This document shows positions 1 to 12,153 of a stretch of DNA of 12,153 nucleotides, piece by piece; position 1 is the first letter of the stretch; every line of letters starts with the position of its first letter. The notes beneath the pieces are model-generated. The model worked only from the letters and a program-made list of their open reading frames with translations, had not been told where the DNA came from and ran no database searches. A program made the position numbers and the translations under genes. Origin of the DNA: a virus. Its lineage: Duplodnaviria > Heunggongvirae > Uroviricota > Caudoviricetes. The stretch spans positions 1 to 12,153 of the IMG/VR virus record IMGVR_UViG_2693429719_000002; one strand, written 5' to 3'.

Positions 1-314
1 TGGGCGTAATTCCGGGAAAGCTGCTCATACGAGACACCCAGCCCGGCAGCGATATACCGCAGCAGTGACTGCTCAAACACGGAGTAGCCGTTATCCGTAT
101 CCTGAGCCGTCTGCAGGTTCAGTGAGTCACCCGGCATCAGGTGCGGTACTTTTGCGCCTCCCAGCCGGACCGGCGCTGCGGCGTAATACGCGGCAATTTC
201 ACCAATCCAGCCGGTCAGCCTTTCCCGCTGCTCCTGACTGTTCGCGCCCAGAATAAAATCCATCGCTGACTGCGTATCCAGCTCACTCTCAATGGTGGCG
301 GCATACATCGCCTT
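1..314 (-). CDS. B: Lambda-type portal protein, C-terminal portion (begins ...KAMYAATIESELDTQSAMDFILGAN...); separated from its N-terminal portion by the insert; runs off the window start
   Basis: Minus-strand translation from 314 downward is open to position 1 and reads as the direct continuation of the portal sequence that stops at the right junction (SAIVKA | MYAAT...). Matches my recollection of lambda gpB; not listed in the ORF track because it touches the window edge. Confidence 0.85.
302..314. other. attL junction: core ATCGCCTT (307..314) within CATACATCGCCTT
   Basis: Same 13-mer with one mismatch occurs at 11230..11242 (CATAAATCGCCTT). The identical 8 bp at 307..314 and 11235..11242 is the likely crossover core. 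Confidence 0.7.
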
Positions 315-388
315 TATGAAAAGACAGGAAAAAATAAAATTTAAAAACAGTACATTACGAATACTCAAACCTATCGTTTAAAGGAGTC

Positions 389-410
389 GCAATACACATT
401 GCAATACACG
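389..410 (+). repeat. Tandem GCAATACAC(A) repeats near attL, putative integrase arm-type binding sites
   Basis: gcaatacacattgcaatacacg at 389..410 is nearly identical to 11084..11105 near the other end, between int and attR. Confidence 0.5.
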
Positions 411-650
411 ATTATTTCTCAGATGAGCGGCAAGCATCCAACAACTATCCGTCATAAAGCTGGTGGATGATCACGGATAAACCGTTATGGGAATCCCCAT
501 ATCGGCATCATGCCCACCAGCGTGGCGCATTTTTTTAATTTCGCGGGTTTAAAAATTTGACGAGGCTGGCGGTCCCATAAGCAATGGGGTGTAGGGATTC
601 CGATCCCCCCGGGGTATTAAACACCCACCCTATTTAAATACCGTCTTTTT

Positions 651-700
651 TGTCACTGTGTGTCACTGGTTGTCACTCTCCGTCACAGTATGTCACCATA
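651..700 (+). repeat. Five phased 10-bp repeats (TGTCACnnnn x5)
   Basis: TGTCAC/CGTCAC at 651, 661, 671, 681 and 691, exactly 10 bp apart, just downstream of the last minus-strand gene. Confidence 0.6.
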
Positions 701-702
701 AG

Positions 703-987
703 TTAACGTCGTAACCGCTCCGGCTTCTTCCACTGGTACGTAATTTTTTCTTTCTCCTGGTACATCTGCACGCGGCGACGGTATGACAACATCTCCAGAA
801 CTCTGCTCCGTATGTCGCGCATATCCACGCCGTTAAGCTCAATACCGTCACGGCGCATCACCTCAGCCACCACACGCGCGTAATTTTCGGCTATCACGCT
901 ATCCGGCTGCGTGGCCTTCTGTTTGCCTGCTGCCTGGCTGGCTCCGGTAATGCAGCGAATCATTTTGAGCATTTCGGCTTCGGTCAT
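703..987 (-). CDS. Hypothetical protein (94 aa from ATG at 987; ORF-track version starts at TTG 1017)
   Basis: ORF in track; GGAGG lies 8 nt upstream of the ATG at 987. No family recognised. Confidence 0.5.
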   Translation of the reverse strand: MTEAEMLKMIRCITGASQAAGKQKATQPDSVIAENYARVVAEVMRRDGIELNGVDMRDIRSRVLEMLSYRRRVQMYQEKEKITYQWKKPERLRR

Positions 988-1024
988 TATCATGGCCTCC
1001 GTGGTGATGGAAAACAATGCCGTA

Positions 1025-1250
1025 ATTGTGGCGGGTCCTTCCTGGAAAATGAAACACCGGGGGTAGCCATACGCGCAATTCTTAACTGTTTATGAAAATT
1101 TTTCGGGAAAAGCCAGATCCGTTCTTCTTCTCTGTAACTCATTGTTTAATGGTAAAATCATCAAAAAAAGAAAGGATCTGACAGTGGTCATTTTGGGCCA
1201 AAAATGACGTTATCAGATCCTTTCTCAGTTTTGTTCAATAATTGCGCGGC
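1025..1250 (+). other. Second cos-like segment in plus orientation: lambda-cosB-like arm with three R-site-like elements carrying CAGATCC instead of CGTTTCC, and a diverged cosN-like segment
   Basis: Plus strand 1080..1250 aligns to the remembered lambda left arm (TTTATGAAAATTTT.CGG, CGTTCTTCTTC, AAAAGAAAGGA, GACAG.G, CCTTTCTC.GTTTTTGT). The position equivalent to cosN reads CGGGGGTAGCCATACGCGC, not GGGCGGCGACCT. Confidence 0.5.
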
Positions 1251-1252
1251 TG

Positions 1253-1780
1253 TCACTCACCTTTCTGTTGCCGTAATTTCTCCGGTACGTTTCCGGTTGT
1301 TTCCATCAGATAATCGGACATCATCAGCGGGATATTTTCATCAAGTTTTGCGCATGCGTTACAGGCTCTGATAACTTCTTTTTTCAGGCCATCCAGCATA
1401 GACGGCTTCATATCGGGAAACTTCCTTATCATGACAAGTGGCAGGCTATCCATGATTGAAGAAATCTGACTCGCCAATTTTGAAAGCACGTATATACAAA
1501 ACGCTGTATCAATAACGTCGCCGCGTTCACGCTCGTTTTTAAGCTCCTGCGCCTCTGCCTGTGCTGTCAGTAATCTGATCCTGACTCGTAGGAGTTCATC
1601 ATCATCAATCTCGCCCGTTTCGTTTGTAATCTGGCTGATTGCATTGTTAACCCGATTATCTATTACACTGGCGACATCATAAAACGCCTCGCGGCCCTTA
1701 CGCTCGACGGGAATCACTCCCCACTTATCGAACGCAGTGGCGCTTACACGGCAACTTTTTGCCATGTTTTTTTTGTTCAT
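1253..1780 (-). CDS. Terminase small subunit, lambda Nu1-like (conserved C-terminal part, divergent N-terminal winged-HTH)
   Basis: C-terminal two-thirds aligns to lambda Nu1 (LLTAQAEAQELKNERERGDVIDTAFCIYVLSKLASQISSIMDSLPL... vs [46 protein letters not shown]...). N-terminus is related but substituted in the putative recognition helix. Start set at the internal ATG (MNKKN, 1780) by alignment with Nu1 MEVNKK. Confidence 0.85.
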   Translation of the reverse strand: MNKKNMAKSCRVSATAFDKWGVIPVERKGREAFYDVASVIDNRVNNAISQITNETGEIDDDELLRVRIRLLTAQAEAQELKNERERGDVIDTAFCIYVLSKLASQISSIMDSLPLVMIRKFPDMKPSMLDGLKKEVIRACNACAKLDENIPLMMSDYLMETTGNVPEKLRQQKGE

Positions 1781-1894
1781 CAGGTGCAATTTCATTGATA
1801 CCACAACTTAATTACTGTTTCAGGTTGGTGTATTGATTGTACTTTTCTCTTATTATTCATGCAGATACAGCGAACAACAAAACCACCACCAGTC

Positions 1895-1990
1895 CCCTTA
1901 AAATGCTCATAAATAGCGAAAACCCGCGAGGTCGCCGCCCCGTAGCCTACCGGATCGCCGGAAAGGACCCGCCAGCCAGAACGGGCCCTA
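1895..1990 (-). other. Lambda-type cos site (cosQ-like sequence, cosN, first ~22 nt of the left arm) upstream of the Nu1-like gene
   Basis: Minus strand reads GGCGGGTCCTTTCCGGCGATCCGGTAGGCTACG GGGCGGCGACCT CGCGGGTTTTCGCTATTTATGA, near-identical to the remembered lambda right end, cosN and left end. Sequence then diverges from lambda cosB (1781..1894). Confidence 0.75.
1929..1940 (-). other. cosN cohesive-end sequence GGGCGGCGACCT (minus-strand reading)
   Basis: Plus strand shows AGGTCGCCGCCC, the exact reverse complement of the lambda 12-nt cohesive end. Confidence 0.75.
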
Positions 1991-1996
1991 ATTTCA

Positions 1997-2380
1997 TCAA
2001 CCAATCAACTTATAGCGACCATCCCGCGCATTGCGACGTACACGCTCAATCTTGAGGCATAGCGCCGCATCTGGCTTTTTTGGGACAGGTACGCGGCAAT
2101 ATTCAGAAGCTCGAGGAATATTGTTTATCCAGTCGATCACTTCACTTAAATACCAGGCCTTACGCCCTTCCGTAACCTGTACGCGTTCGGGGAACTCTCC
2201 GCGAGCCTCAAGGTTTAGCAATGTGCGACGGCTAAGGGTAGTAAGTTCCATCACCTGATTCATATCAACAAGGCGTTCACTTAAACGCATTTTGTCAGCA
2301 ATAGCCTTTAATTCCTCTACTGCTGGATCCGGATACATCATTTCGGCAATTGGCTTAAGGTCATTGTAATGATTCTGCAT
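1997..2380 (-). CDS. AlpA-family helix-turn-helix protein with a ~40-aa N-terminal extension (second AlpA-like gene of the island)
   Basis: Contains MNQVMELTTLSRRTLLNLEARGEFPERVQVTEGRKAWYLSEVIDWI, typical of AlpA/excisionase-type HTH. GGGGG RBS 5 nt upstream of ATG; starts 11 nt after the decoration gene stop. Confidence 0.65.
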   Translation of the reverse strand: MQNHYNDLKPIAEMMYPDPAVEELKAIADKMRLSERLVDMNQVMELTTLSRRTLLNLEARGEFPERVQVTEGRKAWYLSEVIDWINNIPRASEYCRVPVPKKPDAALCLKIERVRRNARDGRYKLIG

Positions 2381-2391
2381 TGTATCCCCCT

Positions 2392-2733
2392 TTACACACG
2401 AGCCAGCGGCTGAACAGAAATACCTGAGCCAACAAACGCGGCAACCTTTGCCGACAGTTCTTTTACAGACTCAGGCCAGTTCAGAGCATCAACATTTAAA
2501 ACACCTGTCTTATAAACCTGTGCCTGTGTTTTTTTCGCTGTGTCGATTTGTACAGCGGAAACATAAACCGCTTTACCTACGCTCGAACCATCCCATACCA
2601 CCAGTGCACCTGTTGCATCTTCCTGCATCAGTGGCGTAAATGCAGGAATTACCCCTTTATTAGCTGAAAATATCCCCAGCGTAGTCACCAGTGCTTCAGT
2701 GCCAGCCATGAGTTCAGTGTAATGAGTAGCCAT
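2392..2733 (-). CDS. Head decoration protein, lambda gpD-like
   Basis: Aligns to lambda gpD (TPLMQEDATGALVVWDGSS vs TPLMLDTSSRKLVAWDGTT; WPESVKELSAKVAAFVGSGISV vs [23 protein letters not shown]). Confidence 0.8.
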   Translation of the reverse strand: MATHYTELMAGTEALVTTLGIFSANKGVIPAFTPLMQEDATGALVVWDGSSVGKAVYVSAVQIDTAKKTQAQVYKTGVLNVDALNWPESVKELSAKVAAFVGSGISVQPLARV

Positions 2734-2742
2734 TGCTCCCCC

Positions 2743-3789
2743 TTAGCCAATGCGAACGGTAACAAAACGATTGATGCGGGCCGGTATTGGCTGTGGTGCT
2801 GAATGTGTCTGCACATATTCAATAGCCGGATCACCAGGCACAATATAGTTTTTCGGTGCAAGTTCGGCTTTAGTCAGCCCCATTCGGATTAGCTCCGGAT
2901 CCTGAATACCGCCATAGGCGACAATCCCCTGAAGAGCCGTATTGCCAAGCACCATCAAATCAGGATCAAGGAAATGTTTTTCTGTTCCGTCCTCGTCGGT
3001 ATAACGCCCGCTGTAAACAACAATCGCAACATCGCCCATATACCCTTTAAAACTCACCGAATCACCAAGGTCTTTAAGGGCCGTTTCCAGTTCGGAATTA
3101 GAACCACGACGGGTATCCAAAGCCTCTTTTATCGCTCTGAATGAACGGTATTTCTTCCATACATTACCACCCATAATGATGATATTAGTGACGCCCTCAC
3201 TAAATTCTGCGTAGCTCTCAATATCATCATTTGGATCAAAAGTTTCTTTATCCTTACCTGACCACTCAGTACCGCCAGACTGAGTGATGATATTTTGTGG
3301 TTTTATATTCCAGTCCAGCTCATAACGTTCAATACCATCGCCCTCAATGATATTTTTCCCCGTTGTGATTGCCTGAACAGCAAGCCATTCAATACGTGCA
3401 CGAATAGCTTTAGCCTGATTTACAATCGCCTGTTTAACTTTAATATTACGCGCCCCAAAAGCATTGTATTGCTCAGGTGACACACCAGCAGGGCGCACAG
3501 CTAACTTATTTGGATCAATGCTGCTTTTCGGCTTCATATAACCTGGACGAATTGTTTTTGATTCGTATCCCTCATCTCGTGAAACTTTACTGCCCACCAT
3601 AGGAGAGCAAAACGCCGCGATCGGGATATTTGGATCGTCGATCGTATCAAGAATAATGTCTCTCGATTCAAACATTACCGAGCGAGTGAAAAACAAACTG
3701 GTAAACAACGCATTTAATTTTTTTTGCACATCTTCAGCATTAGCCACCTGCACAAGCTGTGTAGGCGAATATAAATCAACCATACTCAT
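2743..3789 (-). CDS. Major capsid protein, lambda gpE family
   Basis: Strong similarity to lambda gpE (NIITQSGGTEWSGKDKETFDPNDDIESYA vs NITQSGGTEWSKRDKSTYDPTDDIEAYA; LDTRRGSNSELETALKDLG; GDVAIVVYSG; MVLGNT). Start trimmed to MSMVDLY (3789), AAGAGG RBS adjacent; the ATG at 3783 is an alternative. Confidence 0.9.
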   Translation of the reverse strand: MSMVDLYSPTQLVQVANAEDVQKKLNALFTSLFFTRSVMFESRDIILDTIDDPNIPIAAFCSPMVGSKVSRDEGYESKTIRPGYMKPKSSIDPNKLAVRPAGVSPEQYNAFGARNIKVKQAIVNQAKAIRARIEWLAVQAITTGKNIIEGDGIERYELDWNIKPQNIITQSGGTEWSGKDKETFDPNDDIESYAEFSEGVTNIIIMGGNVWKKYRSFRAIKEALDTRRGSNSELETALKDLGDSVSFKGYMGDVAIVVYSGRYTDEDGTEKHFLDPDLMVLGNTALQGIVAYGGIQDPELIRMGLTKAELAPKNYIVPGDPAIEYVQTHSAPQPIPARINRFVTVRIG

Positions 3790-3954
3790 CCTCTTTACAT
3801 TCATTACAAATAATTGTGAATATATTCTATTACCGATGTCTGCTATGCGAATACATGCAACCAAGTGCAATGTTGTATAAAATATGCCGTAACAACTTCA
3901 GTGCTGATAATTCGTGTTAATGTATTTACTTCCTTTGGTCGGGATTTATGTAGC

Positions 3955-3983
3955 ATGCCGGAAAATCTATTTTTTTCCGGCAT
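3955..3983 (+). terminator. Perfect 11-bp inverted repeat (ATGCCGGAAAA ... TTTTCCGGCAT) followed by CTTTTTGTTTG on the plus strand
   Basis: Read directly; lies in the SSB-capsid intergenic region. T-run follows only on the plus strand, antisense to the operon. Confidence 0.3.
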
Positions 3984-4000
3984 CTTTTTGTTTGCAGAAT

Positions 4001-4423
4001 TTAAAACGGTATATTATCGCCGTACGGATCATCATTCCCCGACTGTTGTTTTGCCCTGTTCAGTGCGTCAGTGGCCTGCCCCTGCTGGCCTTTTTTGCCG
4101 CCCGGTCGCGCCGTTCGCGCACTGATTACGCTGTCTGCGATAACCTGCCAGCCCCGCCGCGTTTCGCCGTTCTGGCCTGTCCACTGGCTTACCTGCATGT
4201 TACCCGCCACGCTCACCAGTTCGCCTTTGTGGTGTCTGGCCAGTGCGTCAGCCTGTCTGCCAAACGCCAGGACGGATAACCACATCGTCGCCGTTCCGTC
4301 ATCTGCCTGGCTGCACGGCAGGGGAACCGCCATACTCGCCATCGCCATTTGTGTCCCTTTGCTGGTGGTCTTTAACTGCGGGTCAGCCACCAGCCGCCCG
4401 TAAGCCGCTATCTGTGCTGTCAT
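4001..4423 (-). CDS. ssb: Single-stranded DNA-binding protein (SSB-like)
   Basis: OB-fold region similar to E. coli SSB (WLSVLAFGRQADALARH..GELVSVAGNMQVSQWTGQNGETR vs [43 protein letters not shown]). Acidic C-terminal tail ends ...DDPYGDNIPF, like DDDIPF. Confidence 0.8.
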   Translation of the reverse strand: MTAQIAAYGRLVADPQLKTTSKGTQMAMASMAVPLPCSQADDGTATMWLSVLAFGRQADALARHHKGELVSVAGNMQVSQWTGQNGETRRGWQVIADSVISARTARPGGKKGQQGQATDALNRAKQQSGNDDPYGDNIPF

Positions 4424-4665
4424 GCTGTCTGCTCTCCGGTTTTAACGTTGATGGTTGTCACCTGTTCCGCTTCGGCAATCTCCCGTTCTGTCAGCGTGGC
4501 AAAGTTTGCCGCCGTCGTGGCCATGAATGCGCTTATCAGTTCGGGATGTGCTTTCGCGTATCCCTCTCCCGCGTTGCGGTCGATGATTTTTATCGCCACC
4601 CTCAGCCAGTGTTCTGTCAAATCAAGGGCGTGAGATTGTGGTTTTTTTGCGTGCTTCGTTGTCAC
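4420..4665 (-). CDS. Hypothetical protein (81 aa, GTG start), translationally coupled to ssb
   Basis: GAGGT lies 7 nt upstream of the GTG; stop overlaps the ssb start (ATGA). No family recognised. Confidence 0.5.
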   Translation of the reverse strand: MTTKHAKKPQSHALDLTEHWLRVAIKIIDRNAGEGYAKAHPELISAFMATTAANFATLTEREIAEAEQVTTINVKTGEQTA

Positions 4666-4699
4666 AGGCTTTACCTCACAGCAATAAAATAAAATTTTT

Positions 4700-4945
4700 G
4701 CATTTTAACCCTTCACCTGTTCACCTTTTGCGATTTTCCCTTTTTATTCATGATGTTAAGGGGTGAACAGTTTCACAAAAACTATTCACCAACTGTTCAC
4801 CACTGTTCACCCTTAAAGCTCAATAAATAATCAAAAAGGTGAACAGTGAATAGTTTGGTGAACAGTTCACAAATAACTGTTCACCCTATAATGTACTGAT
4901 ATAAAAGACATTTATGACAGGGTGAACAGTGGTGAACAGTTATTC
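4700..4945. repeat. Iteron array (about 10 copies of GGTGAACAG / CTGTTCACC in both orientations) in an AT-rich region; putative origin of replication
   Basis: Copies at about 4716, 4762, 4782, 4792, 4803, 4838, 4857, 4878, 4921 and 4931, immediately downstream of the primase-helicase gene. Confidence 0.65.
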
Positions 4946-4952
4946 CATAAGT

Positions 4953-6758
4953 TTAATTTTTTCCATCGTCATTTGTGACCGATGTACATGATGGCATCCA
5001 GTCTTCTGAATCCTCTGTCAGGGTCACATTTGAACGCAAACCGTGCTTCGTTTTCCGTTTCATATACTCCCTGCCATATTCCGCCATTGCCCCCGGCATA
5101 TCTTTACCGAAGCGCGTCAGTGTTACAGGTTTACCGAATCCGTGTGCCCTCATATATGCCAGATAGGCGTGATAAAGATACCTGCGCGGACTGAACGGAA
5201 TAATTTCGGCATTACCCACTAACAGACCATCACACATTACCGACGACATGAGATAGCCGCAGAAGTCCACCAGCGAATCGCCCTCGCGTTTTATCACCAG
5301 AGCTTCTTCTGATTTCTGCTGCTCATACAGCAGGCGTTTAGCTTCGTCCTGGTCAGAAAAACGAGTAAGCAGGTGGCGAATCACAACCGCCAGCTCTCCT
5401 TCTATTTTTTCTGCCAGCATGGGGTCGCGTTCGTTTTCCGGTACAACCTCCGAAAAATTGAATATCACCCGACGACGTGAGATCCCCCCGCTGCGGTCAC
5501 TGAATGACATGGCGTTATTGTTCACCGCCAGCACGACCGCCTGAATGCGTGTTGAGTAGGGAGCTTTATGTTTCGGGTCAATTGCCACCTTGTCACCGCC
5601 TGTAATGGCCTTAATTCCTGCACCATCACCAGCGTAGCGGGTCATATCCGGCATGATAATCAGCGAAAAGCCAACCACTAACGCGCGTTCCCTGGCATCT
5701 TCCAGCGCCTTCATGCTTGCCGACACCGTGTTGGCCTTACCCGCCAGCATGGTGCAAATCTCCGCCATTACGCTTTTACCGCTTCCACCCGGCCCCGTTA
5801 CCTCAAGAAATAACTGCCAGTCGTATCGGTTCGCCAGCACCATGAATAACGCCGCCAGTACGCGATCCGCTTTACGGTCATTCTCTGCCACCGAACGGCG
5901 CAACCATTTCCAGAAATTCGGCGCATGCGTTGCCAGCGTTTCCCCCTCTGCTGGTGGGCTGAACGGTAATTCACTGGCAATTAACAGCCAGTCGTTTTTG
6001 TCATGCTCCCGAAAATCGCCTGTCCGGGTATCAAAAACACCGTTACTGAATCCAATCAGGTTACGGGCGGTATTTCCCATTACGGGCAAACTTAACTTCA
6101 TGGTATCGACCGCCGATTTGATGGCGTTCTGCGAATAACTGATCTCCGCATCAATAAAAATCTGCGCCATAGCCCGCTGTAACTCTTTATCCTGTACCGG
6201 CTCCCATACAACGCCGTTGTAGTGGTGAACTGTGTCAGAGTCCGCATTGATTGCCAGTTCACCGCCATAATGGGCCAGGAGAACTTCGCCGCGCTGGCTT
6301 GCTCCCATCTGGTTAAGCGCCAGTGGTGCGGCGCTGTCTTCTGTTTTTTTCTTAACAGGAAGCTGAATAACCAGACCATCAGAAAGATTCTGGCGCTCAC
6401 GCTCCAGATATTCGCGCCACTCCTCCCGCTTCTGGCTGTGCATTCCCTCAGGGTAATAATTCGCATCCCGTACACCTGCCGCCGCCAGCTTTTGCCCGAT
6501 GGCATTAATATTTGACGGCTTGATGTGGCCTGCCTTGTACAGCCGGACACAATAGCGACCATCGTCGATAATTTTCAGGTCTGCCAGTTCGTCAAGCTGG
6601 CTGTCTCCCAGCCATACAGGCGGAACATTGTCACCAGCAAGTCGCCCGTCCTGCTCCTGCCATTGTTTCGCGTGCGCCCAGGCATCACTACCCGCAAAAA
6701 TAATGACTTCGGTCATTTTGTCGTGCGGCTGTTTTTTTAAGTTCGGTGCCAGTTTCAT
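4953..6758 (-). CDS. Primase-helicase / replication initiator with P-loop NTPase domain
   Basis: 601-aa ORF with Walker A motif (EVTGPGGSGKSVMAEICTML) and an N-terminal primase-like region. Usual position for a satellite replication protein, followed by iterons. Confidence 0.85.
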   Translation of the reverse strand: MKLAPNLKKQPHDKMTEVIIFAGSDAWAHAKQWQEQDGRLAGDNVPPVWLGDSQLDELADLKIIDDGRYCVRLYKAGHIKPSNINAIGQKLAAAGVRDANYYPEGMHSQKREEWREYLERERQNLSDGLVIQLPVKKKTEDSAAPLALNQMGASQRGEVLLAHYGGELAINADSDTVHHYNGVVWEPVQDKELQRAMAQIFIDAEISYSQNAIKSAVDTMKLSLPVMGNTARNLIGFSNGVFDTRTGDFREHDKNDWLLIASELPFSPPAEGETLATHAPNFWKWLRRSVAENDRKADRVLAALFMVLANRYDWQLFLEVTGPGGSGKSVMAEICTMLAGKANTVSASMKALEDARERALVVGFSLIIMPDMTRYAGDGAGIKAITGGDKVAIDPKHKAPYSTRIQAVVLAVNNNAMSFSDRSGGISRRRVIFNFSEVVPENERDPMLAEKIEGELAVVIRHLLTRFSDQDEAKRLLYEQQKSEEALVIKREGDSLVDFCGYLMSSVMCDGLLVGNAEIIPFSPRRYLYHAYLAYMRAHGFGKPVTLTRFGKDMPGAMAEYGREYMKRKTKHGLRSNVTLTEDSEDWMPSCTSVTNDDGKN

Positions 6759-7069
6759 TTTGCCTTTCCCCGTTCACGAATAATTTCACGTACTGCCTTA
6801 ATGCGTTCCATACCTGTAACGCGCATGATTCTGTCGATGTCGCTTAAGTTCGCTGGTGGTGCTTTGCTTACCAGGGTGAATTCACTCTCAAAACGCATAT
6901 GTGACGACACGCAGGGATGCGCATAACCTTCGCGGATATAAGTCACGCGAAAATCGTCAACGGTTTTTATCGTTATTCGTCCGCCGTATTTATCTTTGAA
7001 AATATCGTCGGGGCGGATTTCAGGCCGAGCGGGGCCGCTGGCAGTAAAGCCAGAATTTTTCTTTTTCAT
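6755..7069 (-). CDS. Hypothetical protein (104 aa), translationally coupled to the primase-helicase gene
   Basis: ORF in track; stop overlaps the primase start (ATGA). No family recognised. Confidence 0.55.
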   Translation of the reverse strand: MKKKNSGFTASGPARPEIRPDDIFKDKYGGRITIKTVDDFRVTYIREGYAHPCVSSHMRFESEFTLVSKAPPANLSDIDRIMRVTGMERIKAVREIIRERGKAK

Positions 7070-7075
7070 GTTTTT

Positions 7076-7294
7076 TTACTCCAGAGGCAGCTTTTTAGCG
7101 GCGAGCTCAATATCAGATGTCAGAGAAACCTGTGTATTTGCCAGGTCTAACAACAAAGAAATAAGAATTTCCTCTCTGCTATCGGATTTATCGGTGCTAA
7201 GGCTGTTCATCCACATATTGACGACTTCCCTGATTTTTTTCGCGGAGTGCAGGGCTTCAAATGCCAGGTCTTCAATATCACGTTTATTTCGCAT
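7076..7294 (-). CDS. Hypothetical protein (72 aa from ATG at 7294)
   Basis: ORF in track; start moved to the internal ATG (MRNKRD) preceded by a GGGGG RBS. Confidence 0.45.
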   Translation of the reverse strand: MRNKRDIEDLAFEALHSAKKIREVVNMWMNSLSTDKSDSREEILISLLLDLANTQVSLTSDIELAAKKLPLE

Positions 7295-7529
7295 AATCGC
7301 CCCCACCATTTTCACAATCAACAATCAGGATGGCTTTAGCCTCATTCAGCGCCATATCAGCGGTAAGCTGCACATATGCCAGCGAATGCGGGATTATCGC
7401 CCCTGTATATTCCGGCTCTCTGGTAATGTGTTTTTCTGCGGTTGCTGCCGTGCATGAAATATCAATCAGCGCGTCCATCAGCGTTCTGATGGCTTCGCCT
7501 GCTGCGTCCGGCGTGTTTTTATTGCACAT
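7284..7529 (-). CDS. Hypothetical protein (81 aa)
   Basis: ORF in track; start overlaps the stop of the upstream 68-aa gene; GGGGG RBS upstream. Confidence 0.45.
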   Translation of the reverse strand: MCNKNTPDAAGEAIRTLMDALIDISCTAATAEKHITREPEYTGAIIPHSLAYVQLTADMALNEAKAILIVDCENGGGDYAK

Positions 7530-7725
7530 GGCGCACCCCCTGACGAATACGGGCGGCGAATACCATCACACAGCCATCAGGAGATTGCTGGCGTGCTTCC
7601 TGTTCGCTGGTGGCCTCGATGGTAATCACGCGCGGCTGTGCCGTGCTCAGGGCGATAAAACGCCAGATGTATTTATTCAGGTTGTACGAGTCCCGCCCTT
7701 GCGGGTGTGTGGTATGATTTAACAT
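7522..7725 (-). CDS. Hypothetical protein (68 aa), first gene of the leftward operon
   Basis: Corresponds to the last 68 codons of the 411-aa track ORF 7519..8754. ATG at 7725 has GAGG 5 nt upstream; the upstream part of that long ORF is judged spurious. Confidence 0.5.
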
Positions 7726-7823
7726 AGCTACCTCGATACTTCTGCTATCGTTGGTGGTTAGAAGCCCCGTTACTGCTCCTACAGTGCGGGGTTTCGTCGT
7801 TTCTGCACCTTGCATTAACAAGG

Positions 7824-7900
7824 TGTAAGTAACTTTATTTATAGGTGGCTTACATGTCAATGCTTTTATGTAAGACTTTTTATGTGTATATTGTCTTACA
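7824..7900. promoter_or_regulatory. Divergent promoter region with two ~31-bp operator-like elements (TGTAAG-N19-CTTACA)
   Basis: TGTAAG at 7824 and 7869, CTTACA at 7849 and 7895. A TTGACA -35 for the leftward operon (reverse complement of 7855..7860) abuts the first element. Confidence 0.5.
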
Positions 7901-7921
7901 CTTTCATTGAGAGGATTACAG

Positions 7922-8227
7922 ATGGCTACAGGTTCAAAAAACGCAAAATCACAATCACTGACAGCTCGGATCCCGCATGATGTTATTGAAGGCATGGAAT
8001 CCGTAAAACTGGACGGTGAAAGCAACGCCGGATTCATCGTAACCGCCATGCGCGGTGAAATCGCCCGCCGCCAGGCAGAAGGAAGCGGAGAAAACCTCCT
8101 GGTTTCTTCGCTCGATGCACTGGCGCAGGTGGAAAAAATCGGAGTCAAAGCAGCCGAGGAGATCGGGCAACTCATCACCGTCGCGCGTGAAGAACTCCAG
8201 CGTCGCAAGGCCAAAGAGCAGGAGTAA
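7922..8227 (+). CDS. Small regulatory protein, possibly ribbon-helix-helix type (101 aa)
   Basis: ATG at 7922 with GAGAGGA RBS 6 nt upstream. N-terminal SLTARIPHDVIEGMESV resembles an RHH strand-helix motif (weak, by eye). Sits next to the operator-like repeats. Confidence 0.5.
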   Translation: MATGSKNAKSQSLTARIPHDVIEGMESVKLDGESNAGFIVTAMRGEIARRQAEGSGENLLVSSLDALAQVEKIGVKAAEEIGQLITVAREELQRRKAKEQE

Positions 8228-8284
8228 CCATCACCAGCGCCGTGGTGCGACGAACTGTGGCGCACAGGGTTACAGGTATCTACG

Positions 8285-8482
8285 ATGACTGACAAATCAT
8301 TAAAGAAATTATCCTCATCCAGGAAAAAACAACGCAAAAACGCGGTAAGCGAACAAGAACAGGAAAGATTCGCGCCATGTGCGTTTGTCCTTGAGAAGTT
8401 CCTTAACGAGTACAGGCGCACAAAAATGGGATCGCATACCTGGAAAACATCGCAGCATGGCGATGCTAAAGAGCAGGAATAG
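8285..8482 (+). CDS. Hypothetical small basic protein (65 aa)
   Basis: ORF in track; weak RBS. Its last residues and stop context duplicate those of the upstream gene (AKEQE). Confidence 0.35.
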   Translation: MTDKSLKKLSSSRKKQRKNAVSEQEQERFAPCAFVLEKFLNEYRRTKMGSHTWKTSQHGDAKEQE

Positions 8483-8585
8483 CCCACCAGCAAGCCAGCA
8501 CACTGATCACATTGCCAACCGGATGTAATCACGGCATAGTAATCAGCGCTCATGCGTTGGGGATAACGCGCAATTAGTGTTGAAG

Positions 8586-8613
8586 GGCCACCGTAGCGGG
8601 TGGCCTTTGTTTT
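8586..8613 (+). terminator. Rho-independent terminator (GGCCACC-GTAGC-GGGTGGCC + TTTGTTTT)
   Basis: GC-rich hairpin followed by a T-run, about 100 bp downstream of the plus-strand genes. Confidence 0.6.
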
Positions 8614-8666
8614 GCCTGTTATCCGGCAATTGTGGCGCTTCGTCACACGGTTGATATAATTCCCCT

Positions 8667-8740
8667 GCACTGATCCATTTTTTTCGCAGCAGGTTAATTG
8701 TTCGCAAGGGCGCTCCGGCAACGGGGCGCTTTTTGTTTTT
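8667..8740 (+). ncRNA. Candidate small RNA (~75 nt) between an extended -10 promoter and a strong terminator
   Basis: TGATATAAT at 8652..8660; terminator at 8710..8740; no ORF in the interval. Confidence 0.3.
8710..8740 (+). terminator. Rho-independent terminator (8-bp stem with GCAA loop + TTTTTGTTTTT)
   Basis: GCGCTCCG-GCAA-CGGGGCGC followed by an 11-nt T-rich run. Confidence 0.65.
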
Positions 8741-8898
8741 ACCCACCAGCACAATAAAAATCTTCATTTTCCATTTTTGTAAAATTTCATGCTTTCCGGA
8801 TGGCTGGCCATATGTCATTTTTTAGCAGAAGATTTTGCCTTGCTGGTGGATAGCTTCCCGGTCAACACGATGTACCGTATAATCAGCACCGCGTGTGG

Positions 8899-9477
8899 TT
8901 ACTGAATACGCTCACCAAAGTAAAACTCAGGCTGATATTCACGTATCAGCCTTTTTTCTTCTTCCTCCAGCTCACGCTTTTTGCGCTTACATGCCTGTAG
9001 CTCCCTCCCCTTCTCGCTGGCACTTATCCGGTATTGCTCTTTGCGGCGGGAAAAATCCTGTAATGCGCCCCACGGGATACCATAAGCCCCCGTTTTTCTG
9101 ATACCCGGTATCACATTTCTGAATACCCAATTACTGAAACTATGAGCAAATGTGCCAGGCGTCATTGCTTTGCGGCTACGGGCTATTAGTTTGTAGAAAC
9201 CTGACTCAGAGATAATGCTCATATTCTGATTTCCTCCGGGGGTGTAAGTTAAATTTACTCCCTTTTCATCATCATCAAGCATCTGCAACGCCGTACGCGA
9301 ATTGGTCAGTTCCAGCGCAGCGCAGACATCCTTTGCAACAAACCACGGATCGCCGTTCAGATACACCACGCGAACGTTCACACCATCAAAGCGCAGAACG
9401 ACGAGATCACGAATATCGCAGAATTTTTTCACTGGACGAGCGTACCCCTTGCCCGTCACGGCAATATTTTTATTCAT
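8899..9477 (-). CDS. Bro-N domain protein (putative antirepressor-like)
   Basis: Bro-N signature read by eye: VRVVYLNGDPWFVAKDVCAALEL...SESGFYKLIARSRKAM...FSNWVFRNVIPGIRKTGAY. Confidence 0.8.
   Translation of the reverse strand: MNKNIAVTGKGYARPVKKFCDIRDLVVLRFDGVNVRVVYLNGDPWFVAKDVCAALELTNSRTALQMLDDDEKGVNLTYTPGGNQNMSIISESGFYKLIARSRKAMTPGTFAHSFSNWVFRNVIPGIRKTGAYGIPWGALQDFSRRKEQYRISASEKGRELQACKRKKRELEEEEKRLIREYQPEFYFGERIQ
8929..8958 (+). terminator. Plus-strand hairpin + T6 inside the 3' end of the Bro-N coding region (antisense)
   Basis: AGGCTGATA-TTCACG-TATCAGCCT followed by TTTTTT; a TATAAT at 8878..8883 lies upstream. Confidence 0.4.
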
Positions 9478-9494
9478 CGCGTTTTGACCTTATA

Positions 9495-9520
9495 GACAAA
9501 AAACCCCTCGTAATGAGGGG
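9495..9520 (-). terminator. Rho-independent terminator downstream of alpA (CCCCTC-ATTAC-GAGGGG + TTTTTTG on the minus strand)
   Basis: Hairpin and U-tract begin 14 nt after the alpA stop. Confidence 0.6.
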
Positions 9521-9533
9521 CGTTATTTACTGG

Positions 9534-9791
9534 TTATTGCTGTTTTGTTTTTCCAGGTTTCCATCCAGGATGCCACTCACCACGGATCCACGCCTGAACC
9601 TCTGAAAGTCGATAGCCTGCCGCACGTTCGCCGATCTTGATACGTCGCGGGAATTTACCTGCCTGCTCCATTTTCCAGCGTGTTGAGTTTGCCAGCGTGG
9701 TAAGTGCTATGCATTCTTTTTCACGAATGAACCGATCAATGTCCTTCATTGCGCGCAAATCGTTTTCATCCACAAGAGAATAAATTGTCAT
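9534..9791 (-). CDS. alpA: AlpA-family transcriptional regulator / excisionase-like protein
   Basis: 85-aa HTH protein directly downstream of int (start 1 nt after the int stop); GAGGTGG RBS. Confidence 0.8.
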   Translation of the reverse strand: MTIYSLVDENDLRAMKDIDRFIREKECIALTTLANSTRWKMEQAGKFPRRIKIGERAAGYRLSEVQAWIRGEWHPGWKPGKTKQQ

Positions 9792-9792
9792 A

Positions 9793-11034
9793 TCACACCA
9801 CCTCTTTATTAAGCTCGATAACGTTGTTGTTAAATCCTGCTATCGTATTAAGGTAATTAACCCACATATTAAGCACCTCAAGTTTTTTCTTTATATGCCT
9901 GCTTTTATTGTAAACACCAGCAACCCCTTTCACTTTATGACCCAAAAGAAGTTCGACAATATAAGGATCCGCCCCCATATCATTAAGCATTGTGGAAAAT
10001 GTGCGCCTGAAATCATGTATGCACCACAAGCCATTAGTATCATGACCAAGACGCCTGCATATTCTGTTTGCAGCCCCTGTTATTGTCGCCCTTTGCAAAG
10101 CACAACCGACAACATAACCGCGATTCTTTGTTTCTGCGTAAAGATTAACGATCCATTGTTTTATACCGTCAGGAACGGGCCTTACTATGGCCTCACCGTT
10201 TTTGCTGTGCTCTTTTGGGACTGTCCATACCCAGTTTTTTAAATCCCATTCTTCCCAGGTGGATAACCTCGCCTCCTGCTGTCGACAACCAAACGCCAGG
10301 CATATCACCATAATTCTTCGGTTATGTATCGATGAGAGAGTAAGCAAATTATTTCCATAAGCATACGACCATACATCAGCAGTTTCATTGATGCTAAGAA
10401 CGCGATCCCGTATACCGGACGAGCGGCCTACATAACTTACATTAATGTCTCCAAATGGATCGCAAGCGATATATTGCCTGACGCGACAAAACCGCAACGC
10501 CTGTTTAATATCAAGAAAAATTGCACCAGACATAACAGGCGCATTTTTTTTAATCCTGTCAAAGACGGTAAGCCATGTGTGTAATTTGCACTGTTCTATG
10601 GCCATATCGCCGATATAGGGGAATATATGCTTTTCAAATCGTTTTATTAAATATTCATGCTCTTTTCTGGCTGTTGTGGCGTGATTGTCGTACCAGTAAA
10701 ACAGCGCATCCCTTACGGTCACTGGTTGCATAGTTTTTTCGGCAGCAAGTTTTATTTGCCTGCGGGGGTCCAGATTTTCAGCCAGCCATTCACGGCACTG
10801 ATCACGCATGCGCCTGGCAGTTGCAAGAGACATGTCAGGATAGCGACCAAGTGTAAGCCATACCGGAGGGGATTTCCTGCCACCAAGACGATAGTAAAAA
10901 ACAAAGCTTATCCCCCCGACCATGCTTACACGCACAGACAGCCCGCGACCATCCGCTATTGTTTTTTGTTTGTCCTGTCGTTTTCCGGCAAGACTCTTTA
11001 ACAGTTTGTCGCTGAGTTTGTTTTCAATAGCCAT
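9793..11034 (-). CDS. int: Tyrosine-type site-specific integrase (P4-like)
   Basis: 413 aa; C-terminal catalytic motifs HDFRRTF ... LLGHKVKGVAGVYNKS (H-x-x-R ... Y); sits next to the element end. Confidence 0.95.
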   Translation of the reverse strand: MAIENKLSDKLLKSLAGKRQDKQKTIADGRGLSVRVSMVGGISFVFYYRLGGRKSPPVWLTLGRYPDMSLATARRMRDQCREWLAENLDPRRQIKLAAEKTMQPVTVRDALFYWYDNHATTARKEHEYLIKRFEKHIFPYIGDMAIEQCKLHTWLTVFDRIKKNAPVMSGAIFLDIKQALRFCRVRQYIACDPFGDINVSYVGRSSGIRDRVLSINETADVWSYAYGNNLLTLSSIHNRRIMVICLAFGCRQQEARLSTWEEWDLKNWVWTVPKEHSKNGEAIVRPVPDGIKQWIVNLYAETKNRGYVVGCALQRATITGAANRICRRLGHDTNGLWCIHDFRRTFSTMLNDMGADPYIVELLLGHKVKGVAGVYNKSRHIKKKLEVLNMWVNYLNTIAGFNNNVIELNKEVV

Positions 11035-11052
11035 TAACAGCCCTCAAGAGAT

Positions 11053-11106
11053 TTGCAATACACACCCATCCCGATCGCCAATTTGCAATACACATTGCAA
11101 TACACA
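11053..11106 (+). repeat. Three TTGCAATACACA repeats between int and attR, putative arm-type integrase sites / int promoter region
   Basis: Copies at 11053, 11083 and 11095; the last two form the same 22-mer found at 389..410. Confidence 0.5.
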
Positions 11107-11182
11107 AAACCGCGAAAAACCGGAATAGTGGTGAACGGTCATCAAAAGTATGGAAAACGACATTCCAGACGCAGCAAGGGTT

Positions 11183-12064
11183 TTAGTGGAGTTGGCGAAC
11201 GATGCGGACAACTACGGTGAGATGATAGACATAAATCGCCTTCACAATGGCGCTCTGCAGCTGCGTGTTCTGCAGCGTGTCGAGCATCTTCATCTGCTCC
11301 ATCACGCTGTAAAACACATTTGCACCGCGGGTCTGCCCGTCCTCCACGGGTTCAAAAACGTGAATGAACGAGGTGCGCCCGCCGGGTAACTCACGGGGCA
11401 TCCATGTCCATTTCTGCGGCATCCAGCCAGGATACCCGTCCTCGCTGACGTAATATCCCAGCGCCGCGCCGCTGTCATTAATCTGCACACCGGCACGGCA
11501 GTTCCGGCTGTCGCCGGTATTGTTCGGGTTGCTGATACGCTTCGGGCTGACCATCCGGAACTGTGTCCGGAACAGTCGCGAGGGACTGGTATCCCAGGTG
11601 GCCTGAACGAACAGTTCACCGTTAAAGGCGTGCATGGCCACACCTTCCCGAATCATCATGGTAAACGTGCGTTTTCGCTCAACGTCAATGCAGCAGCAGT
11701 CATCCTCGGCAAACTCTTTCCATGCCGCTTCAACCTCGCGGGAAAAGGCACGGGCTTCTTCCTCCCCGATGCCCAGATAGCGCCAGCTTGGGCGATGACT
11801 GAGCCGGAAAAAAGATCCGACGATATGATCCTGATGCAGCTGGATGGCGTTGGCGGCATAGCCGTTATTGCGTACCAGATCGTCTGCGCGGGCATTGCCA
11901 CGGGTAAAGTTGGGCAACAGGGCTGCATCCACACTTTCACCCGGTGGGTTCCACGCCCGCAACTGCCCTCCAAATCCGCTGCCACCGCCGTGATAACCGG
12001 CATATTCGCGCAGCGATGTCATGCCGTCCGGCCCCAGAAGGGTGGGAATGGTGGACGTTTTCAT
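11183..12064 (-). CDS. B: Lambda-type portal protein, N-terminal portion; ends in 17 element-derived codons after ...SAIVKA
   Basis: 293-aa ORF starting [34 protein letters not shown], near-identical to remembered lambda gpB. Homology stops at the core, then reads [17 protein letters not shown] and terminates. Confidence 0.9.
11230..11242. other. attR junction: core ATCGCCTT (11235..11242) within CATAAATCGCCTT
   Basis: Direct repeat of 302..314 with one mismatch at the fifth base. Confidence 0.7.
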
Positions 12065-12153
12065 ACATAAAATCCTGCAGGTCCCCTGCGTCGCTGTGTC
12101 ATGCCGGTCTGCACTTCCAGCTCCGCAATGTATTTTTTCAGGTCAGACACGGA
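12061..12153 (-). CDS. W: Head-tail joining protein W, C-terminal part (runs off the window end); stop overlaps the portal start
   Basis: Minus-strand translation ...[30 protein letters not shown] matches the remembered lambda gpW C-terminus. Has the lambda-like GTATGA overlap with the B start. Confidence 0.8.

Follow-up and report, generated by a model that had tools for sequence, protein, structure and literature searches.

Introduction

The stretch of viral DNA analyzed here (IMG/VR record IMGVR_UViG_2693429719_000002, positions 1 to 12,153; 12,153 nucleotides, hereafter the window) carries a Gram-negative phage-inducible chromosomal island (PICI) with its own genes for a lambda gpE-like major capsid protein and a gpD-like head decoration protein, called E and D in the following. 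Such a pair was described in 2018 by Fillol-Salom et al., who reported the capsid gene c1499 and the head decoration gene c1500 in the island EcCICFT073 (PMC6092414). Deletion of c1499 or c1500 left island transfer (Table 1 of that study) and interference with lambda unchanged, and the packaged DNA was all phage-sized (PMC6092414); phage-sized capsids were restated in 2019 (PMC6739421). A capsid homologue is found in 21 of the 29 reference Gram-negative PICIs (PMC10111431), and the PICI model of SatelliteFinder uses a capsid morphogenesis gene as a marker typical of enterobacterial PICIs (PMC10085698). The presence of shell and decoration proteins only, considered unusual in a first-pass annotation of the window, is therefore nothing out of the ordinary. 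When the literature was searched for more recent studies of what PICI capsid homologues do, only the papers of 2018, 2019, and 2023 were found.

EcCICFT073 resembles the window in carrying members of the gpE and gpD families in the order E then D, in a late zone downstream of the primase gene (pri-rep), the origin of replication (ori), and the gene for a single-strand DNA-binding protein (SSB). Likewise, both islands are devoid of portal, protease, and large terminase (TerL) genes. The two differ in sequence, with an identity of only 55% both for E (to c1499) and for D (to c1500), and in setting: EcCICFT073 is chromosomal (phoQ side) and relies on Rpp and the small terminase (TerS) of its helper, whereas the island in the window has its own Nu1-like TerS and occupies a site in a helper portal gene. 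PDB entry 3BQW, a crystal structure, represents c1499, with a sequence 100% identical to it.

Helper-embedded PICIs (HE-PICIs) in the late genes of lambdoid prophages were described by Tommasini, Mageeney and Williams in 2023, who named the site B:Phage_portal_2:241 and listed in their supplement E. coli members of ~11 kb with an 'aaggcgat' block and an attR sequence (PMC10111431). For HE-PICIs, 14 insertion sites have been published. This group (Eco*.11.B_Phage_portal_2_241) shares with the window the insertion point, the att block (AAGGCGAT = ATCGCCTT), the length of ~11 kb, the co-orientation with the late operon, and the succession of Integration, Bro, Replication, and Late zones. At the level examined, no difference emerged. 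Both the pair of genes and the type of element were thus known before, and the window appears to be a member of the published group.

The Ccm protein of SaPIbov5 is also a satellite homologue of the helper's major capsid protein, encoded by a cos-packaged island without portal or TerL genes. It is 23% identical to the helper capsid protein, has no decoration partner, and sits in pentamers, where it converts prolate heads to heads of triangulation number T=4 with strong interference (PMC6893505, PMC8569155); in contrast, the E. coli PICI homologue in EcCICFT073 was associated with neither a size change nor a phenotype (PMC6092414). Capsid-forming PICIs (cf-PICIs) such as EcCIEDL933 resemble the island in their int-alpA-rep backbone and in encoding a capsid protein and a TerS of their own. 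They differ in having genes for portal, head maturation protease, head-tail connectors, HNH, and TerL as well, and in producing small capsids themselves (bioRxiv 10.1101/2022.09.08.507074). None of these additional genes is found in the island, and no open reading frame (ORF) of at least 40 amino acids gave a match to the set. Lambda itself shares both protein families and folds as well as an identical cosN, but E and D are only 43% and 37% identical to their lambda counterparts, the two genes stand in the opposite order, the island lacks the C/Nu3 and FI genes that flank them in lambda, and the island proteins fall into a separate clade.

The reading that we favor, tentatively and at somewhat less than an even chance, is that island E and D are real but accessory components of lambda-sized shells, which work on the portal and scaffold of the helper and do not form an obligate private capsid. 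Added here to what was known are the assignment of E/D to an old, satellite-specific lineage, a fixed gene order in nine islands, strong purifying selection, and the presence of the island's own cos and terS beside E/D. The window adds a clear-cut case of the pair in an island that is both helper-embedded and of the TerS type. Knowing what E and D do would shed light on the extent to which classical PICIs rely on the capsids of their helpers, and on the evolution of capsid-forming satellites.

Results and Discussion

E is a full-length capsid protein of the gpE family

The coordinates of all features are collected in Table 1. E matched Pfam Phage_cap_E (PF03864) at 2.9e-41 (142 bits, cut-off 22.9), with residues 14-345 aligned to positions 4-327 of the 329-position profile, and phrog_29 (major head protein) at 2e-89. 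Full-length matches were obtained to PDB 3BQW (1e-121, the best PDB match) and to lambda gpE (7VI9, 9e-78). An AlphaFold model computed from a 51-sequence alignment (predicted local distance difference test, pLDDT, 78.7; predicted template modelling score, pTM, 0.81) was superposed on 3BQW with a TM score of 0.88 and on lambda gpE (7SJ5/7VI9) with TM scores of 0.83-0.87. Homology and the predicted structure thus confirmed E as a full-length major capsid protein of the lambda gpE family with an HK97-type fold, in line with the first-pass annotation. The fold is conserved over the whole length of E, which is collinear with lambda gpE and deviates by small indels only. Translation of E probably starts at ATG 3783, which has an AAGAGG Shine-Dalgarno motif 6 nt upstream and is annotated likewise in RefSeq homologues of 346 amino acids; ATG 3789 is the less likely start.

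Identity to E of the helper prophage in E. coli GZEC065 was 42.5%. When segments were defined by the secondary structure of the AlphaFold model, helper and island E shared 53-62% of residues in the core and central domains, 28% in the N-arm, 29% in the E-loop region, and 24% in the spine helix. This conservation of the capsomer core next to a divergent periphery speaks for an interfering function, in which island E, alone or together with D, would mix into helper capsomers and be dispensable for transfer. It might specialize on pentons in the manner of Ccm or poison the capsomers, and thereby lower helper yield or bias capsids to the satellite. Ccm is a precedent for a satellite capsid homologue sitting in pentamers (PMC8569155), and an overlap with Rpp- or TerS-based interference could mask a phenotype (PMC6739421). 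Nevertheless, we consider such a function improbable, since deletion of c1499/c1500 gave no relief of lambda interference in EcCICFT073 and a pure poison needs no cognate decoration protein under equally strong selection.

D is a decoration protein that follows E in all islands compared

D was assigned to the gpD/SHP family by matches to Pfam HDPD (PF02924; 4e-15, 56.4 bits, cut-off 29.1), phrog_49 (head decoration; 6e-26), and the PDB structures of phage 21 SHP (1TD0; 4e-16) and lambda gpD (8e-12). It is 39% identical to D of the GZEC065 helper. To our knowledge, binding of the expanded gpE lattice is the sole role of gpD. On that lattice, the N-terminus of gpD pairs with two parts of gpE, its E-loop and its N-arm (PMC5701804). 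These contact regions belong to the parts of E that are most diverged from helper E, which fits a cognate island E-D pair.

The gene for D directly follows that for E in nine of the nine islands compared, that is, in the window, in L001, L002, L004, and L005 from E. coli, and in L006 (Edwardsiella), L007 (Lelliottia), L009 (Serratia), and L010 (Salmonella). The 9-nt gap between the two genes in the window accommodates a GGGGGAG Shine-Dalgarno motif. Lambda, the helpers of L001 and L006, and L011, a relative of the L010 helper, show the order D then E, so that the inversion relative to lambda pointed out in the first-pass annotation holds. The E+D fusion P0089 was considered as a phage-type case of E then D and was discarded, because it is a read-through in the lambda order D-E and hence no counter-example. 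P0005 is an island-type E-D read-through.

The pair forms a satellite-specific lineage under purifying selection

In a neighbor-joining tree of 108 full-length E homologues, the midpoint split separated a clade of 47 sequences, including the window and the CFT073 island, from a clade of 61 with lambda and helper E. No closer phage relative was found in 50,697 phage records, in which the best tblastn identities were 42% (E) and 41% (D). Judged by these comparisons, the satellite-type E/D pair is not present in sequenced phages and represents an old, satellite-specific branch. The synonymous divergence (dS) of island E/D against the helper genes is saturated. Together with the fixed order of E and D, this argues for one old acquisition and not for repeated recent capture.

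Ratios of nonsynonymous to synonymous substitution rates (dN/dS) were low for both genes. Specifically, E gave 0.010 against the GZEC065 island (dS 0.13) and 0.078 against L004 (dS 1.39), and D gave 0.029 and 0.074 in the same comparisons; terS was under looser constraint than E and D (0.14-0.16). L005 was left out of this analysis. Intact E of 346 amino acids, in clusters of 643, 1275, 243, and 146 members, far outnumbers truncated forms. The E/D pair is present at a coverage of at least 80% in 395 of the 5426 complete E. coli genomes; in CREC-629, the E-D region is 100% identical to that of the window. A search of E. coli genomes for an L010-type island gave none at a coverage of at least 80%.

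Neutral decay of E and D is excluded, because dN/dS values lie at 0.01-0.08 and intact copies predominate. This removes one half of a further explanation, according to which the genes are neutral late-gene remnants or serve a non-structural purpose, be it as decoy or trigger for a capsid-sensing defense or in regulation. A non-structural purpose would agree with the missing structural phenotype in EcCICFT073 and with the defense functions that PICIs often carry (PMC9122126). We regard it as very unlikely, given that the whole HK97 fold is conserved and a lattice-binding decoration partner kept, and that the lambda-type helper heads observed together with the pair point to a connection with head assembly.

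Window and L004 differ in how far the two neighboring genes have diverged: E is 84% identical (dS 1.39) and D 96% (dS 0.27). This mismatch indicates recombination between E and D inside the satellite lineage.

A hybrid capsid gene was found on the metagenome scaffold ERZ28600228 (L008, 2801-3829). Residues 1 to ~230 of its product, P0043, are ~99-100% identical to lambda gpE and the remainder is 100% identical to E of the window; a lambda-type D precedes the gene and an island-type D follows it. P0043 either arose by natural recombination between helper and island, with the crossover where conservation is highest, or is a chimera produced in assembly of the reads.

The island splits a helper portal gene, and lambda-type heads accompany helper-embedded relatives

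The window contains an HE-PICI of the published site type B:Phage_portal_2:241, which is seated inside a lambdoid prophage's portal gene and has an orientation matching that of the prophage late genes. Nearly all large ORFs of the window lie on the - strand, and all key island genes share the strand of the portal gene. The characteristics of PICIs were found together, namely int, alpA, pri-rep with a downstream ori, one direction of transcription, and a size within 10-15 kb: the island spans 10,928 bp between its att repeats, close to the ~10.9 kb estimated earlier. Among its ORFs, profile searches against Pfam and PHROG gave no match to portal, protease/scaffold, or large terminase, as the first-pass annotation had stated, and none to tail or lysis genes. 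That annotation had assumed a helper-supplied portal. The portal is indeed not encoded by the island, but the fact that the island itself splits the portal gene had been overlooked.

A prophage portal gene in E. coli GZEC065 is likewise split into two halves by an island, which covers 81% of the window at ~92.6% identity. The prophage around it is a complete lambdoid, with nohD/Nu1, A, W, B, C, D, E, and FI through J, and helper C, D, and E lie downstream of the island within one late transcription unit. The prophages embedding L001 and L006 have a lambda-type head module. L006 (765-12681, Edwardsiella tarda) extends the equivalent portal-gene position to a second genus; it has E then D and no terS before its right end, with helper D then E just downstream.

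L010 (3526-15165, Salmonella enterica GCA_005980655.1) interrupts a prophage's gene for the tail sheath; this prophage has a contractile tail of P2-like type. Its head genes fall outside the locus examined, and the head type was read from the closest available relative of the prophage, L011, chosen via a baseplate protein of 94% identity. In L011, a P2-like contractile tail occurs together with Nu1, A, W, portal_2, S49, D, E, and FI. The lead from L010 that E/D islands might use helpers without lambda-type heads was dropped, as L011 has a lambda-type head module.

E-D modules were also found in chromosomal PICIs outside any prophage (L002, L004, L005, L007, and L009). In one of these, L007 (10001-12752, Lelliottia), which is integrated at fis, E and D are followed by a gene for a 447-residue S49 gpC-type protease/scaffold. 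L007 has a fuller head module than the window, yet no portal or TerL.

The insertion sites bear on the possibility that E and D are back-up copies, which replace helper late functions that are interrupted, or affected by polarity, while the island is still integrated. Gene E is the commonest HE-PICI site, and Tommasini et al. suggested that an intact back-up copy is supplied (PMC10111431); the position ahead of helper C, D, and E within one transcription unit would also suit this purpose. On the other hand, the gene interrupted here is that of the portal, of which the island has no copy, the module occurs in PICIs that are not embedded, and the lineage is ancient and specific to satellites, with saturated dS against the helper and a best match of 42% in phage records. 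A back-up function therefore seems highly doubtful to us.

The island has its own cos site and small terminase

E, D, a gene for an AlpA-like helix-turn-helix (HTH) protein, cos, the Nu1-like terS, and a small ORF make up the late zone as one tight operon. The 58-bp cosQ/cosN block aligned with the cos of the GZEC065 helper with 55 of 58 positions identical; similarity is lost on the cosB side, toward terS, with the divergent cosB located directly upstream of that gene. TerS is 43% identical to lambda Nu1, mostly in the C-terminal half, and has a divergent N-terminal DNA-binding part. In lambda Nu1, the C-terminal half is the part that binds TerL (gpA) (PMC6739421). With its own cos and a full-length Nu1-like terS, the island is of the TerS type and not of the Rpp type represented by EcCICFT073.

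Four island units (4 x 10,928 bp) amount to 43.7 kb, or 90% of lambda. This falls inside the packaging range of lambda, 78-105% of the genome or 37.8-50.9 kb. Rough volume scaling from lambda gave ~21 kb for a T=4 head and ~13.6 kb for a T=3 head, to be compared with 21.9 kb for two island units and 10.9 kb for one unit, respectively.

The first-pass annotation had suggested a smaller lattice matched to the island genome. Island E/D would then use portal, scaffold/protease, TerL, and tails of the helper to build a private smaller shell (e.g., T=4 or T=3) that holds one or two island genomes and shuts out helper DNA. A complete fold and a cognate E-D pair under strong selection beside the island's own cos and terS would suit such a shell, and by capacity scaling two units would fit T=4 and one unit T=3. 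There are also precedents: small capsids are made by PmCI172, which has a gene for a capsid homologue (PMC6092414), and a change of capsid size is brought about by Ccm of SaPIbov5 (PMC8569155). However, the smaller lattice is contradicted in the relative EcCICFT073, in which all DNA was phage-sized and E/D deletion had no effect on transfer or interference (PMC6092414, PMC6739421). In addition, no sequence feature predicts a different T number, and E is collinear with lambda gpE. A private smaller shell is thus rather unlikely in our view, and a dedicated small capsid is unproven.

A satellite-owned shell in a broader sense, in which island E and D form particles on helper portal, scaffold, and protease that are distinct from those of the helper, is unlikely as well. 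Size, or a preference for the terminase that contains island TerS, could set such particles apart. If this were true, TerS-type enterobacterial PICIs would represent a half-way stage from classical to capsid-forming PICIs, and the negative result in EcCICFT073 would reflect its Rpp subtype, the laboratory helpers, or redundancy.

Proposed role of E and D as accessory shell components

We infer each assembly and packaging step for this element from what the present data and the cited papers establish: homology, fold, gene order, selection, the anatomy of cos and terS, the insertion site, and the dispensability of the pair in EcCICFT073. Upon induction of the helper, the island would be excised and the portal gene restored, such that no portal could be made before excision. 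The island would then replicate from its own ori. Its TerS would bind the island's cosB and recruit the helper large terminase gpA, which would cut the common cosN. Island E and D would join capsid assembly on the portal, scaffold/protease, and chaperones of the helper, in shells consisting either of island E only or of a mixture with helper gpE, and island D would cement the expanded lattice. The resulting heads would have the size of lambda heads (T=7) and hold about four island units each. E/D would be redundant with helper E/D in the laboratory and be retained by selection in nature.

Purifying selection, the constant pairing of E and D, and lambda-type heads in three helper-embedded cases, in one of them seen in the closest available relative of the helper, indicate that the two proteins are probably genuine shell components. 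When the absence of the clade from phages and the fixed gene order are considered as well, E and D very probably act in head assembly. As accessory components, they would reconcile strong selection with the null laboratory phenotype in EcCICFT073. Of the view that the island builds its own shell on helper parts, the weaker form is hence supported by selection, pairing, and lambda-type helpers, while an obligate shell is opposed by the silent EcCICFT073 deletions. Transfer unaffected by deletion of these genes had been named beforehand as an outcome that would refute this view; it was observed in the 55%-identical, Rpp-type EcCICFT073 and not in the TerS-type island studied here.

Several points weigh against accessory shell components. 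The deletions of c1499/c1500 in EcCICFT073 were without any phenotype, and the two TerS-encoding islands tested in 2018 were poorly transferred (PMC6092414). Structural participation of E and D is deduced solely from conservation and context, and co-assembly of E with helper gpE, or its compatibility with the helper scaffold, would have to hold at only 43% identity to helper gpE. Strong selection could reflect a non-structural role. Finally, the arithmetic of four units per head is matched about equally well by T=4 with two units or T=3 with one.

Island boundaries and other features

The ATCGCCTT core at both junctions corresponds to the published 'aaggcgat' identity block of the Eco*.11.B_Phage_portal_2_241 group, and the attR published for this group matches positions 281-365 at the left junction. 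The portal pieces at 11237-12064(-) and at or below 308(-) are parts of the interrupted prophage gene and not island genes. On the right side, the interrupted portal ORF continues for 23 codons into island DNA up to a stop at 11183. Exact excision at ATCGCCTT would rejoin the portal as ...QSAIVKA|MYAATIESE....

Table 1. Positions of island features and flanking prophage sequence in the window
Feature	Position	Strand or end	Remarks
att core ATCGCCTT	307..314	left island end	portal C-terminal coding sequence resumes at/below 308 (-)
Last island gene, conserved hypothetical	703..1017	-	phrog_1561
Nu1-like small terminase (terS)	1253..1804	-	RefSeq-type start 1795 (180 aa); Pfam Phage_Nu1 1.3e-24, phrog_57 6.9e-51
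Island cos site	1907..1964	-	cosN 12-mer GGGCGGCGACCT at 1929-1940, exact lambda match
AlpA-like HTH protein, 127 aa	1997..2380	-	Pfam Phage_AlpA 1.4e-8, phrog_2790 1.8e-48
gpD/SHP-family head decoration protein (D), 113 aa	2392..2733	-	begins 9 nt past E stop
gpE-family major capsid protein (E)	2743..3789	-	likely start 3783 (346 aa); alternative ATG 3789 (348 aa)
Single-strand DNA-binding protein (SSB)	4001..4423	-	Pfam SSB 1.2e-15
Putative ori	4716..4941	.	8 exact GGTGAACAGT copies and a near-copy at 4716-4727, both orientations, directly downstream of primase gene
D5_N/DUF5906/Pox_D5 primase-helicase (pri-rep)	4953..6758	-	Pfam
Bro-N domain protein ('Bro zone')	8899..9477	-	Pfam Bro-N 2.2e-19
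AlpA regulator/excisionase	9534..9791	-	Pfam Phage_AlpA 4.7e-14
Tyrosine integrase	9793..11034	-	Pfam Arm-DNA-bind_3, Phage_int_M, Phage_integrase
att core ATCGCCTT	11235..11242	right island end	adjoins portal N-terminal part
Lambda-family portal N-part, first 270 residues	11237..12064	-	Pfam Phage_portal_2 match stops at profile position 242

The island genes are arranged in the order int, alpA, Bro-N, small ORFs, D5-type primase, ori, SSB, E, D, AlpA-like HTH, cos, terS, and a small ORF. The region 4716-4941, with its iterons and long imperfect palindromes, is by its sequence the probable ori of the island; published PICI ori sites are located 3' of pri-rep (PMC6092414). The gene for the AlpA-like protein follows D in the tight operon, starting 11 nt past the D stop, and has equivalents at the same position in L004 (annotated as HTH regulator), L009, and L010. 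Similarly, a small hypothetical protein is encoded after terS in L001, L004, and L005.

Some candidate features were rejected. The TTG-start ORF 7519-8754(-), of 411 codons, is probably not a gene, as its product is rich in Cys and Ser, it lies antisense to a YlcI/YnfO-like gene (7907-8227, +), and it is unannotated in related RefSeq islands. The hairpin at 3955-3983, between SSB and E, is not a clear terminator, with a T-run on the + strand only. When the complete window was compared with Rfam, no known RNA family was detected, including the P4-like CI/seqA (C4, isrK) immunity RNAs; two miRNA-family matches far below threshold, over the palindromic ori, were spurious. Sigma-70 promoter-like sites in 300-5000 were no more frequent than in shuffled sequence.

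Just inside both island ends, TGCAATACAC is repeated at 400-409, 11054-11063, 11084-11093, and 11096-11105, and the 21-nt GCAATACACATTGCAATACAC is present at 389-409 and 11085-11105. From their sequence and placement, the TGCAATACAC repeats are probably arm-type sites of the integrase, and they perhaps correspond to the 'doubled DNA motif' named by Tommasini et al. for the attP of HE-PICIs.

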